This document shows, piece by piece, positions 43,275-55,133 of a stretch of 64,000 nucleotides of DNA. The notes beneath the pieces are model-generated. The model was not told where the DNA came from, made no database searches, and worked only from the letters and a program-made list of their open reading frames with translations. Origin of the DNA: Cetorhinus maximus (Eukaryota). Position numbers and translations under genes: made by a program. Each line of letters begins with the position of its first letter. The first letter of the stretch is position 1. The stretch is taken from assembly GCF_964194155.1 (NCBI RefSeq), contig NC_135899.1, forward strand, positions 80,290,001 through 80,354,000, written 5' to 3'.

Positions 43275-44387
43275 GTGCTGAATTTTGCCAGCCCGCAGGT
43301 GGCTGGAAAAAAGGGCCAATAAATAGTGGGGAGCCACGCCAGAAAGGCTTCCCAATGTTGTCCCGCCACAGGGGAAATTTCCCAGCAGAGAGCAGGAGCT
43401 TGGCTATGAGGTGCATCAGCTGAAAGCAGGGTAATTAAGGGCCCAATTGCGGTCCCTTTTACAGGGCTACCAGCAATTTACTGATGGTGGAGTGGCCCCC
43501 CCTGCCATGTCAGGAGGCCAATAGCTTCATGGAGGCAGCCCTTCAGCAGCCCAGGAAGCCATCAGAGCCAGAGGATCCATGGCCCAAAGAGGAGGGCTTG
43601 GGCTTGAAAAGCAGCTTCCGCGGCCAAAATGATTCCCCCCAATGGGGCTTCCCCTCTGTCCCGTGGGGCCGACTGCCCTTGGCCATCCTAAGGTTTAATT
43701 CTCGAATACCTGTCAGTGGGAGTTTCCATTTTGAGGCATCCCTCATTGAGTGCAGCATCAGGAGCCCACCCATTGTCTTTATATTTTTTAATTGTAACAA
43801 TCATGTTGCATGGCACATTTAATCAAAGAGACCAAAGCCCATTTCATCATCAGACTCTTCAGATTTCTCCTGTTTCTTCTCTACCTTTATCTTTTCAGCG
43901 GCAATAGGGGCAGCAGTGGAAACAGCTGCTGCAGCAGCTGGGACACTACCACCAGCAACAACATTGCAGATCAGACTATTGATGTCAATATTAGCCAGTG
44001 CCTTGGCAAACAGACTGGGCCAGATAGGCTCAATAGTTACACTAGCTGTCTTGATCAGGGCATTGAGTTTGTCTTCAGTCACGGTGACCCCGTCATTGTG
44101 CAGGATGAGTACGCTATAGATACAGGCGAGTTCCAAGGTGGAGGCCATGGCACTGCAGTTCTGTGGGTCCTATGGTGCTAGTCGTCAGGAGAATCTCAGT
44201 CTTAGCTTCGATCAGAAGAACCAAGCACATAATTGAACAATAATTGAACAGTGGGCCCACAAGTGGCCAGTTCAGAGGCCTCATGCAGTAAAAATCACTG
44301 AGCGCATCTCAAGCCTGATGCCAGCAAATGCGGGTTTAGGGCCTGCTTTTCACTCCAACACCAGGTTCCTGAAGCAAAATTCAGCCA
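43275..44387. mobile_element. Harbinger-type MITE containing an RPLP1 retrocopy
   Basis: Perfect 12-bp inverted core GCTGAATTTTGC (43277-43288) / GCAAAATTCAGC (44374-44385); 3-bp TSD CAA at 43272-43274 and 44388-44390. Confidence 0.75.
43819..44148 (-). pseudogene. RPLP1: Processed retrocopy of 60S acidic ribosomal protein P1 (109-aa frame open but diverged)
   Basis: MASTLELACIYSVLILHNDGVTVTEDKLNALIK...EESDDEMGFGLFD; intronless. 5' UTR to ~44228 with GAAGCTAAG and CGACTAGCACC; ATTAAA in the short 3' UTR. Confidence 0.92.
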
Positions 44388-46550: not shown

Positions 46551-46712
46551 CCGTGGCTGTAGGAGGTAGGATGTAGGTTTGATATTGCTCCAATCCCATG
46601 AGTTAAGTGGGATCTCCACCTCTCCCAGCAAGAGGTTGTGCCCAAAGTGATCACTGTGCCACACAGAGATGCTTAGAGTCCGACTCTGCAGCTCATCTTT
46701 CCCCAGTTTGTA
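46551..46712 (-). CDS. SYTL1: SYTL1 exon (C2A C-terminal half)
   Basis: 162 bp; YKLGKDELQSRTLSISVWHSDHFGHNLLLGEVEIPLNSWDWSNIKPTSYLLQPR; aag| and |gtaag. Confidence 0.95.
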
Positions 46713-48010: not shown

Positions 48011-48646
48011 TAAATGCCAACAACAACAACCTGCATTTTTACAGTGCCCTTAACATAGAAAATGACACAGGGCGTTTCACAGGAGAATTATCAAACAGGA
48101 GAGAATTGGAATAGTCAAATCTGTAGGTAACAAAGGCAAGGATGTTGGATATTGCTGAAAAGAGAGACATGTTGCCAAAGCTTTTCATCTTGCATTAATT
48201 AGTACAAACTCAAGAATACCAAATTTCAAATAATCATGATTTATACTACAGGAGAAAGGGAAATTGGTTGGCAAGTCGACTCTGATTGGCCAAGGTGTTG
48301 CCATGGGGAAAGCAACGGGGAAAAATAGGCTACCCATGCTTCTGAGTAATTCAAAATAGGTGCAAGGCTTGAATATATTCCTTTTGAATGCAGAGAACGG
48401 GTCCCTGCATATGAATGTAAGTCGCTTCTAGCAAGCATAAATGAGCCACATTAAGAGCTCAACTGATTATCTTAAATTGGTTGTTAGTGTAGCTATTAGT
48501 GTACTCAGGATTGCTCAGCTGCCCAATCACGGAATCACATCTATCAGTAGACATTTTGTTTTGCGTTTTGCAAGAACAGGCTAGTTGAGTACAGTCAGCA
48601 CTCTGTCCATTACAAACAGCGAAGGATTCTGTGTCTGAAAGTGACG

Positions 48647-49021
48647 ATGGTTGATGAGAAGAAACCAGCTCCCAAGAAGGGAGGCAAGAAAGCCTTAAAG
48701 AAACCGGTAGCAAAGGGCGGTAAGAAGCGGCGAAAGTCGAGGAAGGAGAGTTATGCCATCTACGTCTACAAAGTGATGAAACAGGTTCATCCCGACACTG
48801 GCATCTCCTCCAAGGCCATGAGCATCATGAACTCGTTCGTGAGCGATATTTTCGAGCGCATCGCGGGTGAGGCTTCCCGCCTGGCCCATTACAACAAGCG
48901 CAGCACCATCAGCTCCCGGGAGATCCAGACCGCCGTGCGCCTGCTGCTGCCCGGGGAACTAGCCAAGCACGCCGTGTCAGAAGGGACAAAGGCGGTGACC
49001 AAGTACACCAGTTCCAAGTAA
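48647..49021 (+). CDS. H2B: Histone H2B, intact 124-aa ORF; retrocopy nested antisense in a SYTL1 intron
   Basis: [15 protein letters not shown]...[26 protein letters not shown]...[16 protein letters not shown]. Insert 48627-49053 is flanked by ACAAACAGCGAAGGA at 48612-48626 and 49054-49068. Expression unknown. Confidence 0.95.
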
Positions 49022-49255
49022 AACCCCAGATCTGACTGAAAAACACATTCAAAACAAACAGCGAAGGAACATGTTGTTTGATTCGAGCTGCCAGTCGTTG
49101 AGACATACAGCCCAACTATCTGGCATTGCACCTACACTGAAATTCATACATGCCGTTGCTCAATTGTGTGGTAGGCAGAACGTCTTTTTGGACTGACGGC
49201 AGCATCCTATTAGTGGAAAATACAACTCGCATCGCCACTGCAGAGTAGCAGCATG

Positions 49256-51020
49256 AATGTAGGAAATAGGAGAAGGCCATTTTGCCCCTCAAGCCTGCTC
49301 CTCTGTTCAACTTGATCATGGCTGATCTTCTACCACAATTTCATTTTCCCGTACCATCTCTATATCCCTTGATGTCTTTAATATCTAGGAATCTATCAAT
49401 CCCTGTCTTAAACCTACTCATTGACTGACCCTCCAAAGCCCTCTGGGGTAGAGAATTCCAAAGATTCACCACTCTCTGAATGACGAAGTTCCTCCTCACC
49501 TCAGTCCTAAATGGCCTACTCCTTATTCTGAGACAATGTCCCCGGTTCTAGGCCCCCAGCCCGGGCAAACATCCTTCCTGCATCTACCCTGTCAAGCCCT
49601 GTAAGAATTTTATATGTCATTGACACCACTTCTCATTCTTCTAAACTCGAGGGAATACAGGCCCAGTATCCTCAGTCTCTCCTCATAGGACAATCTTGCC
49701 ATCGGAGGAACTAGTCTGGCAAATATTCATTGCACTCCCTCCATGGCAAGTACATCCTTCCATAGGTAAGGAGACCAGGTGCGGTCTCACAAAGGTTCTA
49801 TACAAATGCATCAAGACATATGTATTCAAATCCTCTTGCCACAAATGCCAACATACCATTTGCCTTCCTAATTGCTTGCTGCATCTGCATGTTAGCTTTC
49901 AGTGACTCATGAACAAGGGCACCCAGGTCTCTTTGGACATCAACACTTCCATATCGCTCACCATTTAAGAAATATTCTGCGCTTCTGTTTTTCCTACCAA
50001 AGTGGATAACTTCATATTTTTCCACATTATATTCCATCTGCCATGTTTTTGCCCACTCACTTAGCATGTCTAAATCCCTTTGAAGCCTGTTTGCATCCTT
50101 CTCACAACTCACATCCCCACCCAGTTTTGTGTCATCAGCAAACTTGGTAATATTACACTTGGTCCCCACATCTAAATCATTGATATAGATTGTAAATAGC
50201 TGGGGCCCAAACACTGATCCTTGCAGTAGTCACAGCCTGCCGATCTGAGAAAGACCTATTTATTCCATCTCTATATGAGAGGAGCAAGAGAAAGTTGCGG
50301 GTCTAAATGACTCAATTATTTTGGGGGGTGGCTGCAGAGGAAGTCGGAAAAGTGGGACCTTATTGAAAGCCTTCTGAAAATCCAAATACACCAGATTCAT
50401 TAGTTCCCCTTATCTATTATGCTAGTTACACCCACAAAAAACTTCAAAAGGTTTGTTAAACATGACTTCCCTTTCATAAATACATGTTGACTCTGACCAA
50501 TCCTATCATTATTTTCTAAGTGTCCAGTTATACACCCTTCATAATAGATTCTAGCGTTTTCCCTACAACTGATGTCAGACTAACAGGTCTATCGTTCCCC
50601 ATTTTTTCTCTCCCTCCTTTCTTAAACAGTGGGGTTACATTTGCTACCTTCCAATCTACAGGAACCGTTCCAGAATCTATAGAATTTTGGAAGATGACCA
50701 CCAATTCATCCACTATCTCTACAGCCGCCTCTTTGGACACTCTGGGATGTAGATCATCAGGTCCAGGGGATTTACCAATTTTTAGTCCCATTAATTTCTC
50801 CAGTACTCCTTCTCTACTAATAACTAATTTAATTCAGTTCCTCATTCTTGCTAGTCCCTTGGTTCTCTAATTCTTCTGGGGGGTGTTTAGTAACTTCCTC
50901 CGTGAAGACAGACACAAAGTATTTGTTTGGTTTCTCTGCCATTTCCTTATTCCCTATAATAAAGTCTCCTTTCTCTGGCCGAAATGAGCCCACATTTGTC
51001 TTTCCTAATTTTTTCCTTTT
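49256..51020 (-). mobile_element. CR1 LINE (RT and 3' tail), internally deleted
   Basis: GPQLFTIYINDLD...KFADDTKLGG...LQRDLD; KSPGPDDLHPRV...DWKVANVTPLFKKG...RPVSLTSVVGK. Confidence 0.92.
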
Positions 51021-51537: not shown

Positions 51538-51640
51538 CTTTAACCATTCATTAAATGTAGGATTCAGGGTTTTCTTCTTCACTGAGGTTTTACGTTTGCT
51601 TTGGGATGATTTGTCTGGGAGAAGATAACTCTTCACATAA
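51538..51640 (-). CDS. SYTL1: SYTL1 exon (C2A polybasic region)
   Basis: 103 bp; [34 protein letters not shown]; aacag| and |gtaag. Confidence 0.95.
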
Positions 51641-52669: not shown

Positions 52670-53470
52670 TGCCTAATCAGCTTGGATCAGAAATGGCTTT
52701 TGACAGAATATCACACACATACCTGATGGATGTGCTTTCTAAAATGGTGTTTGTGGAGGGAATCTGAAATTGGATCCACCTACTCTACACAAACATCAGT
52801 AGCGCGGCTTTAATCAAAGGGTGGAAATTGGAAAGCCTTCCGATCAGGCAAGGCTGTCATCTCTCTTCTGCCTTGTTTGTGTGTTGTACCAATCCTTTAC
52901 TGAGTTCATCAGGAAGGATGCAGATGTAAAAGGGGCAATGATCCTAGACAGCGGAGGCATTCACTTCAAGGCCTTCCTGTACATGGAAGGCATTACTGTC
53001 TTCTGCTTGGATCCACTTTTAGTCCACAGATCAAGCAGCATTTTTGACCAGTCAAACTGTCCTGGGGAGCTAGAGTAAATCGCAACAAAAGCAAGACCGC
53101 CTTCTTGGGAATTAGGCGTACTGATCCTTTGTCCCCTTCACCGTCAGATCAGGTTGCCTGAAGGTGCTGGGAATATGGGGCCAGGGCATGCACCAAGAAC
53201 TATAGCTAAAGTCAATCAGAATCTGGGAATGTGGGAGCGATGTTTCCTCTTGATTGTAGGTTAGAACTCGGTCATCAGGTGTGAGGTGCTTCAAGTATTG
53301 TTGTGCAAGTTGCAATACTGTCTCGTGCTCTGGCTGTGTGGTGACAGTTATCTAAACCATCTCCTACTTTGTCTGGAGATCGAAAATGGACCTCACCCTC
53401 AGGGACATAATGTACAAATCTTCAGATAAAGGGGGAAGAAATGTAGCCAAATGTCACCCTCATTCTGATT
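52670..53470 (+). mobile_element. L1/Tx1-like RT fragment; probable 3' tail resumes at ~55140-55340
   Basis: SLDQKxAFDRISHTYL, QGCxLSxxLF and LYMEGI (LYMDDV-like) remnants. Confidence 0.7.
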
Positions 53471-55133
53471 CTGGAAATCCAAAACAAAAATAAAAATAAA
53501 AATACCTGGAAAAACTCAGCAGGTCTGAAAGCATCTGCGGAGAGGAATATTACTCCGGCCCCCTCCCACAACTCTTTCTCCGGTACATCAATGACTGCAT
53601 CGGTGCTGCTTCATGCCCTCGTCTGGACCTGGAAAAATTTATTAATTTTGCTTCCAATTTCCACCCCTCCATCATTTTCACATGGTCCATCTCTGACACT
53701 TCCCTTCCCTTCCTTGACCTCTCTGTCTCAATTTCTGGTGATAGACTGTCCACAAATATTCATTTCAAGCCTACCGACTCCCACAGCTACCTTGACTACA
53801 GCTCCTCACACCCCACTTCCTGTAAGGACTCCATCCCATTCTCTCAGTTCCTTTGCCTCCGTCGCATCTGTTCTGATGATGCCATTTTCAAAAACAGTTC
53901 CTCTGACATGTCTTCCTTCTTCCTTAACCGAGGTTTTCCACCCACGGTGGTTGACAGGCCCTTCAACCATGTCCGGCTCATCTCCTGCGCATCCGCCCTC
54001 AAACCTTCCTCTCCCTCCCAGAATCATGATAGGGTCCCCCTTGTCCTCACTTATCACCCCACCAGCCTCCGCATTCAAAGGATCATCCTCCGCCATTTCC
54101 GCCAACTCCAGCATGATGCCACCACCAAACACATCTTCCCTTCACCCCCCCTGGCGGCATTCCGCAGGGATCGTTCCCTCCAGGACACCCTGGTCCACTC
54201 CTCCATCACCCCCTACACCTCAACCCCCTCTCACAGCACCTTCCCATGCAACCACAGAAAGTGCAACACCTGCCCCTTTACTTCCCCTCTCCTCACCGTC
54301 CAAGGGCCCAAACGCTCCTTTCAATTGAAGCAGCATTTCACTTGCACTTCCCTCAATTTAGTCTACTACATTGGCTGCTCCCAATATGGTTTCCTCTACA
54401 TTGGAGAGACCAAATGCAGACTGGGTGACCGCTTTGCAGAACACCTTCGGTCTGTCCGCAAGCATGACCCAGACCTCCCTGTCGCTTGCCATTTCAACAC
54501 TCCACCCTGCTCTCATGCCCACATGTCCGTCCTTGGCCTGCTGCAATGTTCCAGTGAAGCTCAACGCAAACTGGAGGAACAGCACCTCATCTTCCGATTA
54601 GGCACTTTACAACCTTCCGGACTGAATATTGAGTTCAACAACTTTAGATCATGAACTCTCTCCTCCATCCCCACCCCCTTTCCAATCCCCTTCTTTTGCC
54701 AATAATTTATATAGATTTTTCTTTTCCCACCTATTTCCATTATTTTTAAATGTATTTCCATCCATTGTTTTATCTCTACCTTTTAGCCTATTTCGATCCC
54801 TTCCCCCCCACCCCACCCCCACTAGGGCTTTCTGTACCTTGCTCGTCCTGCTTTCTACCCTTAATGTCATCATTAGCACATTTCTTAGCTAATATCACCA
54901 CCGTCAACACCTCTTTGTCCTTTTGTCTATGACGTCTTTTGGCAATCTCCACCTATCACTGGCCCTCTATCCAGCTCTACCTGTCCCACACCCCTTAAAC
55001 CAGCTTCACCTCTTTTCTATTTTTCCTTAGTTTTGTTGAAGAGTCATACGGACTCGAAACGTTAACTGTATTCCTCTCCGCAGATGCTGCCAGACCTGCT
55101 GAGTTTTTCCAGGTATTTTTATTTTTGTTTTTT
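53471..55133 (+). mobile_element. Young, 5'-truncated Penelope-like element with inverted terminal repeat (RT C-terminus and GIY-YIG)
   Basis: One frame is open from LFLRYINDCIG (~53572) to the stop at 54654, including LVYYIGC...LYIGETKCRLGDRFAEHL. 53481-53549 is the reverse complement of ~55069-55131. Confidence 0.92.

Follow-up and report, generated by a model that had tools for sequence, protein, structure and literature searches.

A probable full-length, tailless retrocopy of a clustered histone H2B gene in a shark genome, and the dispersed family to which it belongs

How did a complete histone H2B coding sequence, with neither stem-loop nor poly(A), come to lie between two copies of a perfect 15-bp repeat inside a Penelope-like relic of the shark Cetorhinus maximus? 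The insert spans 427 nt (48627-49053) of the window, the 64-kb stretch of DNA analysed here, and consists of a 20-nt leader, a 124-aa H2B ORF and a 32-nt trailer. The ORF (48647-49021) matches the Pfam family Histone with an E value of 2.6e-22. The flanking 15-mer, ACAAACAGCGAAGGA, is present in exactly two copies in the whole window (48612-48626 and 49054-49068), with no extension possible; the computed probability of such a repeat at both junctions by chance is ~4e-7. A stem-loop regular expression finds no match anywhere in the 64-kb window, and no poly(A) is found on the insert. The window search and the Pfam match bear out what the initial annotation had described: a complete H2B ORF with a 15-bp target-site duplication (TSD), lacking stem-loop and poly(A). 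Its remark that many CpGs are intact also holds, with 23 of the 26 CpGs of the cluster-majority ORF retained. The features of the locus are as follows.

48612..48626, plus strand: left TSD, 15 bp; its last A doubles as the inferred +1 of the H2B mRNA
48627..48646, plus strand: H2B 5' leader from the inferred transcription start, promoter not copied
48647..49021, plus strand: intact type-1 H2B ORF, 124 aa, I40V
49022..49056, plus strand: 3' UTR, no stem-loop, no poly(A); includes the ACA microhomology 49054-49056
49054..49068, plus strand: right TSD, 15 bp
48145..48626, minus strand: Penelope-like relic, 3' part (end of endonuclease-type ORF and terminal region)
49069..49257, minus strand: Penelope-like relic, 5' part (...LAARIKQHVP)
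46551..46712, minus strand: C2-domain exon of the host gene (synaptotagmin-like)

The best PDB match of the C2 exon at 46551..46712 is synaptotagmin-like protein 4 (E 4.9e-08), and a second C2 exon of the host gene lies near 51550-51640. With C2 exons on both sides, the H2B copy sits in an intron, antisense to a synaptotagmin-like gene. Among the members listed for the 90% cluster of the protein, every named one with an organism given comes from a shark or ray, in keeping with an elasmobranch genome.

The insert matches a large histone cluster on contig C32 at 96-97% identity. The cluster matches that we fetched all continue on both sides: upstream they have CCAAT, octamer-like and TATA motifs, and downstream a stem-loop, GGCTCTTTTAAGAGCC, 39 nt after the stop codon and 7 nt past the breakpoint of the window copy (4 nt if ACA is counted as copied). 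Cluster genes 3' of the breakpoint read ...CATTCAAA ACA CAAC GGCTCTTTTAAGAGCC. This alignment confirms a non-polyadenylated stem-loop histone gene as the parent. The stem-loop of the parents speaks against a polyadenylated H2B parent, and the lack of any copied promoter or downstream element against a DNA-level duplication with parental flanks, two origins that the initial annotation had itself set against its reading. Contigs from four of 24 sequencing runs, aligned to 49016-49500, consisted largely of repeats, and among the pieces listed none spans the junction.

Both junctions are ambiguous. On the left, the final A of the TSD is also the base with which the parent leader (ATTCTG) opens; on the right, the first 3 nt of the TSD, ACA, are also the parent's continuation, a 3-nt microhomology. 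We place +1 at the A of ATTCTG because many independent copies start there: among 28 copies found by their 3' UTR, described below, 16 start at most 4 nt from the 5' start of the window copy. The last 15-20 nt ahead of the hairpin are predicted to be unpaired in two parent 3' ends. The window ORF differs at nine positions from the majority of 31 type-1 cluster genes, eight synonymous and one non-synonymous (I40V), and four of the nine differences are also present in cluster genes.

The host relic (~48145-49257, minus strand) reaches no more than 86% identity with its closest siblings, against the 96-97% between the insert and its parents; as judged by these identities, the H2B copy is young relative to its Penelope host. 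Removal of the insert had been thought to rejoin the GIY-YIG frame. Instead, IKQHVP and FAVCNGQ fall in different frames in the empty-site reconstruction, and the host frame has another stop (FKIIS*): the Penelope element was already dead. Sibling copies mostly have one additional base within the duplicated stretch, and one of them (L075) reads IKQHAPLVIHNRQG in a single frame. Since the 1-nt loss is present in both TSD copies, it is older than the H2B insertion. The suggestion that H2B was amplified as Penelope cargo also fails, as none of the 29 best sibling loci among 6759 candidates has H2B at this junction. For the H2B copy, Penelope is no more than the landing site. The terminal region of the relic contains what we take to be a hammerhead-like core. 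A LINE fragment with an RT match, presumably CR1-like, adjoins the relic (~49260-51020, minus strand), and a second Penelope-like element, better kept, lies at 53447-55120 (plus strand); it has an open frame of 384 aa and matches GIY-YIG weakly (E 0.024).

The H2B copy, at first treated as a lone event, turns out to be a member of a large dispersed family. A 3' UTR probe gave 88 matches and 28 dispersed copies, with one cluster-type gene (L057) excluded. A start-codon probe gave 92 exact matches, 39 on C1-C25 and 45 on C32, and 8 of its 104 matches with one mismatch were taken in. From this set 40 loci were fetched and four excluded (L132 as promoter-bearing; L119, L121 and L122 as duplicates of other copies), which leaves 36 further independent copies. 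Together the probes yield 64 independent dispersed H2B copies, a set of young copies only, as detected by exact probes, with matches on contigs after C32 represented in part. Copy ends were set with two aligners and BLAST; the loose alignment over-extended, and the strict one under-extended L094, L098 and L127 and mis-anchored L097.

The stem-loop is absent from all 64 copies. Sixty-two end between the stop codon and the stem-loop, the other two inside the ORF, and the 3' ends peak ~9-12 nt and 4 nt before the hairpin. This clustering is no artefact of the 3' UTR probe, as the start-codon set shows the same picture. Of the 28 copies recovered with the 3' UTR probe, 25 retain the ATG. Exact junction repeats of at least 8 bp flank 13 of 57 copies, compared with 4 of 400 shuffled flank pairs, and 11 of 57 after removal of two repeats native to the target; the 15 bp of the window copy is the longest of these repeats. 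Among 11 TSD copies picked by hand, seven have a TSD that shares 3-6 nt with the templated end.

Exceptions exist. The 5' end of L129 lies 52 nt ahead of the inferred +1, and L098 is followed by a run of ~9 A. L308, found with a probe reaching into the hairpin, has both stem-loop and downstream element; its 5' junction is common to cluster loci, so that it looks like a DNA-level or transduced copy.

Several observations concern the surroundings and structure of the copies. Four of them (L050, L101, L103, L130), with differing UTR variants and junctions, occupy one site of one repeat, which has no match in 266 kb of background. Three others (L049, L116, L127) and the H4 copy L240 lie in a CCAACCTTAAGGTTGG palindrome. 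It is possible that the shared repeat site and the palindrome are insertion hotspots. At the 5' junction of L049, a piece of the H2B 3' end is present in inverted orientation. L032 contains two H2B copies head to tail; the second belongs to an older, divergent type (MVDEMKAQVSKK) and likewise ends ahead of the stem-loop. Of 25 copies that start near +1, 15 have a C immediately 5' of the insert. At codon 21, 21 of 60 dispersed copies, mostly older, share a base that is absent from 31 of 31 sampled cluster genes; this base likely records the state of the cluster before homogenisation. On C32 itself, 15 of 20 sampled type-1-start loci (L133-L152) have no stem-loop in the fetched stretch; these loci, mostly with one common downstream sequence, are an amplified interrupted H2B. 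A regular tandem array of H3 and H1 genes (L329) lies at G000:C39, ~0.97-1.35 Mb, separate from the C32 cluster.

As far as their sequences tell, the dispersed copies decay like methylated pseudogenes: non-CpG pN/pS is 0.62 in 60 of them, versus 0.16 among cluster genes, and CpG loss is scattered. That the ratio stays below 1 probably comes from synonymous differences inherited from unsampled parents. Thirty young copies map to many type-1 haplotypes, with 17 nearest-parent sets, and this diversity argues against a single master copy. A SINE-like family derived from one or a few masters was considered and rejected, as the 17 nearest-parent sets do not point to a shared source.

The family is strongly biased in its content. 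For a census by histone class we used CpG-free exact probes in the coding core and counted matches on C1-C31 as dispersed. They number 86 of 286 for H2B, 1 of 136 for H3, 0 of 112 for H2A and 6 of 191 for H4, an H2B excess over each of the other three (Fisher p <1e-14). A CpG artefact of CpG-bearing H3 and H2A probes is dismissed, as the CpG-free probes give the same result. Five of the six dispersed H4 copies end before the stem-loop; the sixth and the sole H3 copy carry stem-loop and downstream sequence. Because five H4 copies stop early too, the mechanism is general, with an output that is mostly H2B.

The bias extends to the subtype. By exact matches, type-1 H2B has 39 dispersed copies versus 45 on C32, and type-2 H2B (MVEEKKKPVAKK) 1 dispersed versus 46 clustered (4 versus 71 with one mismatch), a difference in dispersal with p ~1e-8. 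Type-2 genes share the A/C-rich layout of the UTR and gave few copies, so the 3' UTR alone fails to explain the bias. The CATTCA motif, where many copies end, is kept in 6 of 18 readable type-2 genes, and the proximal promoters of the two types look alike; a cis-element may therefore contribute. Only retroposition events in the germline are inherited, which makes subtype-specific germline abundance the simplest cause. Retrocopies have been used in this way to infer the germline expression of an H2B type (PMC8857922). On balance, we lean towards the type-1 excess reflecting much higher germline mRNA levels of type 1.

Which enzyme could have made the copies? TSD lengths peak at 13-15 bp for L1, 10-12 bp for RTE and 3-5 bp for L2/CR1 (PMC4245944). 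The genome contains a young polyadenylated LINE with APE, RT and zf-RVT domains, a U2 snRNA head and many intact copies of its 1141-aa ORF2; the copies are 97-99% identical to one another. The TSDs of this Tx1-type LINE measure 9-17 bp in 9 of 12 copies, in mixed-sequence targets without TT/AAAA, and the element is found at histone start codons in the C32 cluster. Its poly(A) end lies directly against histone genes, no more than a few codons from their start, at no fewer than six distinct junctions; the loci concerned, all on C32, belong to H2B (L058, L299, L325), H3 (L159, L172, L162) and H4 (L059, L233, L243). Two LINE copies (L365, L386) have a downstream sequence that we take to be U2-like, as in target-preferring Tx1-clade LINEs. 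The candidate resembles Keno and other members of that group in its APE-type endonuclease and U2 snRNA head; it differs from the Keno-type LINEs as described in that most copies are off-target, with 9-17-bp TSDs and several at histone start codons (PMC4494074, PMC4640811).

We regard this young U2-headed Tx1-type LINE as a somewhat favoured candidate for the maker of the window copy, through a link that is circumstantial. No H2B-Tx1 chimera with a shared TSD was found among the copies examined. A TSD of at least 8 bp is present in only 9 of 27 young H2B copies, versus 9 of 12 Tx1 copies, so that many H2B copies look L2/CR1-like or like products of break repair. The target of the window copy reads TT/ACAAACA, a partial fit to the mammalian L1 consensus TT/WAAAAWW; this consensus is not general in the shark copies, whose TSD is preceded by TT in only 2 of 12 cases. 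A search for L1 ORF1 (PF02994) gave no match, with controls equally silent.

A young tailless SINE, whose 24-mer has 7,955 exact matches, abuts the 5' end of histone copies L026, L042 and L239. The only informative chimera is L026, where one 13-bp TSD surrounds SINE and H2B; in L239, three SINE units lie in an H4 leader with a 14-bp TSD. Among the SINE TSDs scored, 12 of 16 reach at least 8 bp. They overlap the Tx1 range, and the SINE partner may thus be Tx1. A partner LINE was looked for in the genome and not found, and the SINE head has no tRNA or Rfam match. An RTE-type T-stretch is not evident ahead of the SINE or H2B TSDs in these small samples (cf. PMC6007223). Polyadenylated mRNA is retroposed too in this genome, namely as RPLP1 copies. 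One such processed copy lies in the window (43780-44200, minus strand) and ends after ATTAAA with no clear tail; the RPLP1 parent is intron-bearing and lies on C4, and short A tails were seen by eye in 6 of 18 copies with its 3' UTR.

We conclude that the window copy very probably reproduces a clustered replication-dependent H2B gene in full length and without its promoter, and that it was likely made by a LINE reverse transcriptase that primed in the unpaired A/C-rich 3' UTR. In this mechanism, a LINE endonuclease would nick the old Penelope relic, and the nicked strand would pair with the ACA that ends four bases short of the hairpin. Histone mRNAs have a protein that binds this hairpin, and together the two would bar the enzyme from the true 3' end. 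Copying would proceed to the 5' end of the mRNA, and a second nick 15 bp off would yield the TSD. The core of the mechanism first proposed, internal priming ahead of the stem-loop with possible target microhomology, is thus upheld, the microhomology being the 3-nt ACA match.

Other routes to the same arrangement differ in the template, the enzyme or the level of copying. The templates could have been 3'-trimmed decay intermediates of H2B mRNA, devoid of the stem-loop and copied from their free ends. Histone mRNA degradation runs 3' to 5', and the ends of the copies do spread from the stop codon to the hairpin base, never inside the hairpin. However, they cluster at two motifs, ~9-12 nt and 4 nt before the hairpin, and the 3-6-nt target overlap in 7 of 11 TSD copies also counts against free ends; Noll et al. 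(PMC5322556) report no truncated-RNA intermediates for tailless copies of 5S and U2. Such templates are therefore unlikely. The RNA origin may be as proposed, with a different LINE at work, either CR1/L2 or the partner of the tailless SINE, or with more than one enzyme active over time. Two thirds of the young copies are without a long TSD, L011 and L093 have flank-derived extra bases at the 5' junction, as described for ZfL2-2 (PMC4245944), and the single 13-bp TSD of L026 encloses SINE and H2B. Set against these, the 15 bp of the window copy falls outside the 3-5-bp L2/CR1 peak (PMC4245944) and the SINE partner may be Tx1 itself, given the overlap in TSD range, so that we consider a different enzyme possible, if doubtful. 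As for DNA-level duplication of a cluster gene (an orphon), such copies exist in this genome (L213, L237, L308); at the window locus, both ends match RNA landmarks, as in dozens of other copies, and promoter, stem-loop and downstream element are missing, and we give this origin next to no weight.

Penelope could have mobilised H2B, as cargo or in trans, if the H2B 3' UTR mimicked its internal start site. In the anole, the Poseidon element cuts at ATT and begins reverse transcription at an internal site, in an AC-rich stem-loop (PMC11167929); the host family terminates in ...AATATTCAA, with an ATTCAA motif, resembling the H2B ...ACATTCAA where many copies end. Against this stand the antisense orientation of H2B to the element, the gap in identity (at most 86% between host and siblings, 97% between H2B and parents) and the siblings empty of H2B, which refute cargo for the loci examined. 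The type-2 genes that share the motif (6 of 18) left hardly any copies, which also weakens mimicry as a cause of the H2B bias, and we judge mobilisation by Penelope to be quite improbable. A functional orphan retrogene that escapes S-phase control, as initially envisaged for a transcribed copy, has a still slimmer chance. It would fit the intact ORF, with 8 synonymous and 1 non-synonymous differences from the cluster majority. Yet four of these nine are shared with cluster genes, and youth alone accounts for the open frame of 29 of 60 dispersed copies; the window copy has too few changes from the cluster for a selection test. There is no TATA or octamer within ~200 nt upstream of the window copy, where a single CCAAT occurs at 48523, and 49022-49700 contains no poly(A) signal. 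Lacking both a stem-loop and a poly(A) site, an mRNA would have no defined 3' end. With the antisense position in an intron and a family that decays pseudogene-like, escape from S-phase control is left unsupported, and most likely the window copy is a pseudogene that is silent and decays neutrally.

Among known systems, the window copy has the structure of a tailless retropseudogene: it is RNA-derived, truncated at its 3' end without oligo(A) and flanked by a TSD, with ACA complementarity to the target and a truncation site predicted to be unpaired. The tailless retropseudogenes of Noll et al. 2015 (PMC5322556) likewise combine a TSD, no oligo(A), a single-stranded 3' end and a short complementarity between target and RNA, which involves the last 2-18 nt of the copied RNA. 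The 51 human histone tailless copies given there are all 5'-truncated, none of them full-length, whereas most shark copies keep leader and ATG. Among the species screened there, tailless copies were found only in therians and green anole, and the portion of that study available to us describes no histone-class or subtype bias (PMC5322556). Four features are new relative to known tailless retropseudogenes: the lineage, copies of full length, 3' ends that consistently fall short of the stem-loop, and the bias to one subtype. Our literature search, which covered few subscription papers, found no paper on a tailless shark H2B family.

The mammalian germline retroduplicates H2B.K and H2B.N are similar in that retrocopies point to germline expression of an H2B type; their parents are described with introns and poly(A) signals, whereas the shark parents are clustered stem-loop genes (PMC8857922). 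LTR-mediated retrocopies, as described in PMC5131818, share the position inside a retroelement and the junction microsimilarity. Unlike them, the window copy has its TSD around the insert alone, the Penelope element is older, dead and antisense, and the flanks vary between copies.

The locus itself is almost certainly a passenger. Its family shows tail-independent retroposition of whole histone mRNAs in a cartilaginous fish, and the 29 of 60 examined copies with open frames would pass as histone genes in counts. That one subtype is so strongly favoured over the genes beside it in the cluster gives a testable hint, either of an H2B programme specific to the germline or of an RNA signal that a LINE recognises. 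Tentatively, and as a possibility that we would not yet favour, sharks may have a germline-enriched stem-loop H2B subtype, far in excess of the neighbouring H2A, H3 and H4, whose mRNA was captured by a U2-headed Tx1 LINE homing to histone starts; the tailless copies would then be a fossil record of that expression and of the concerted evolution of the cluster. If true, this reading would extend relaxed, tail-independent retroposition to cartilaginous fishes.
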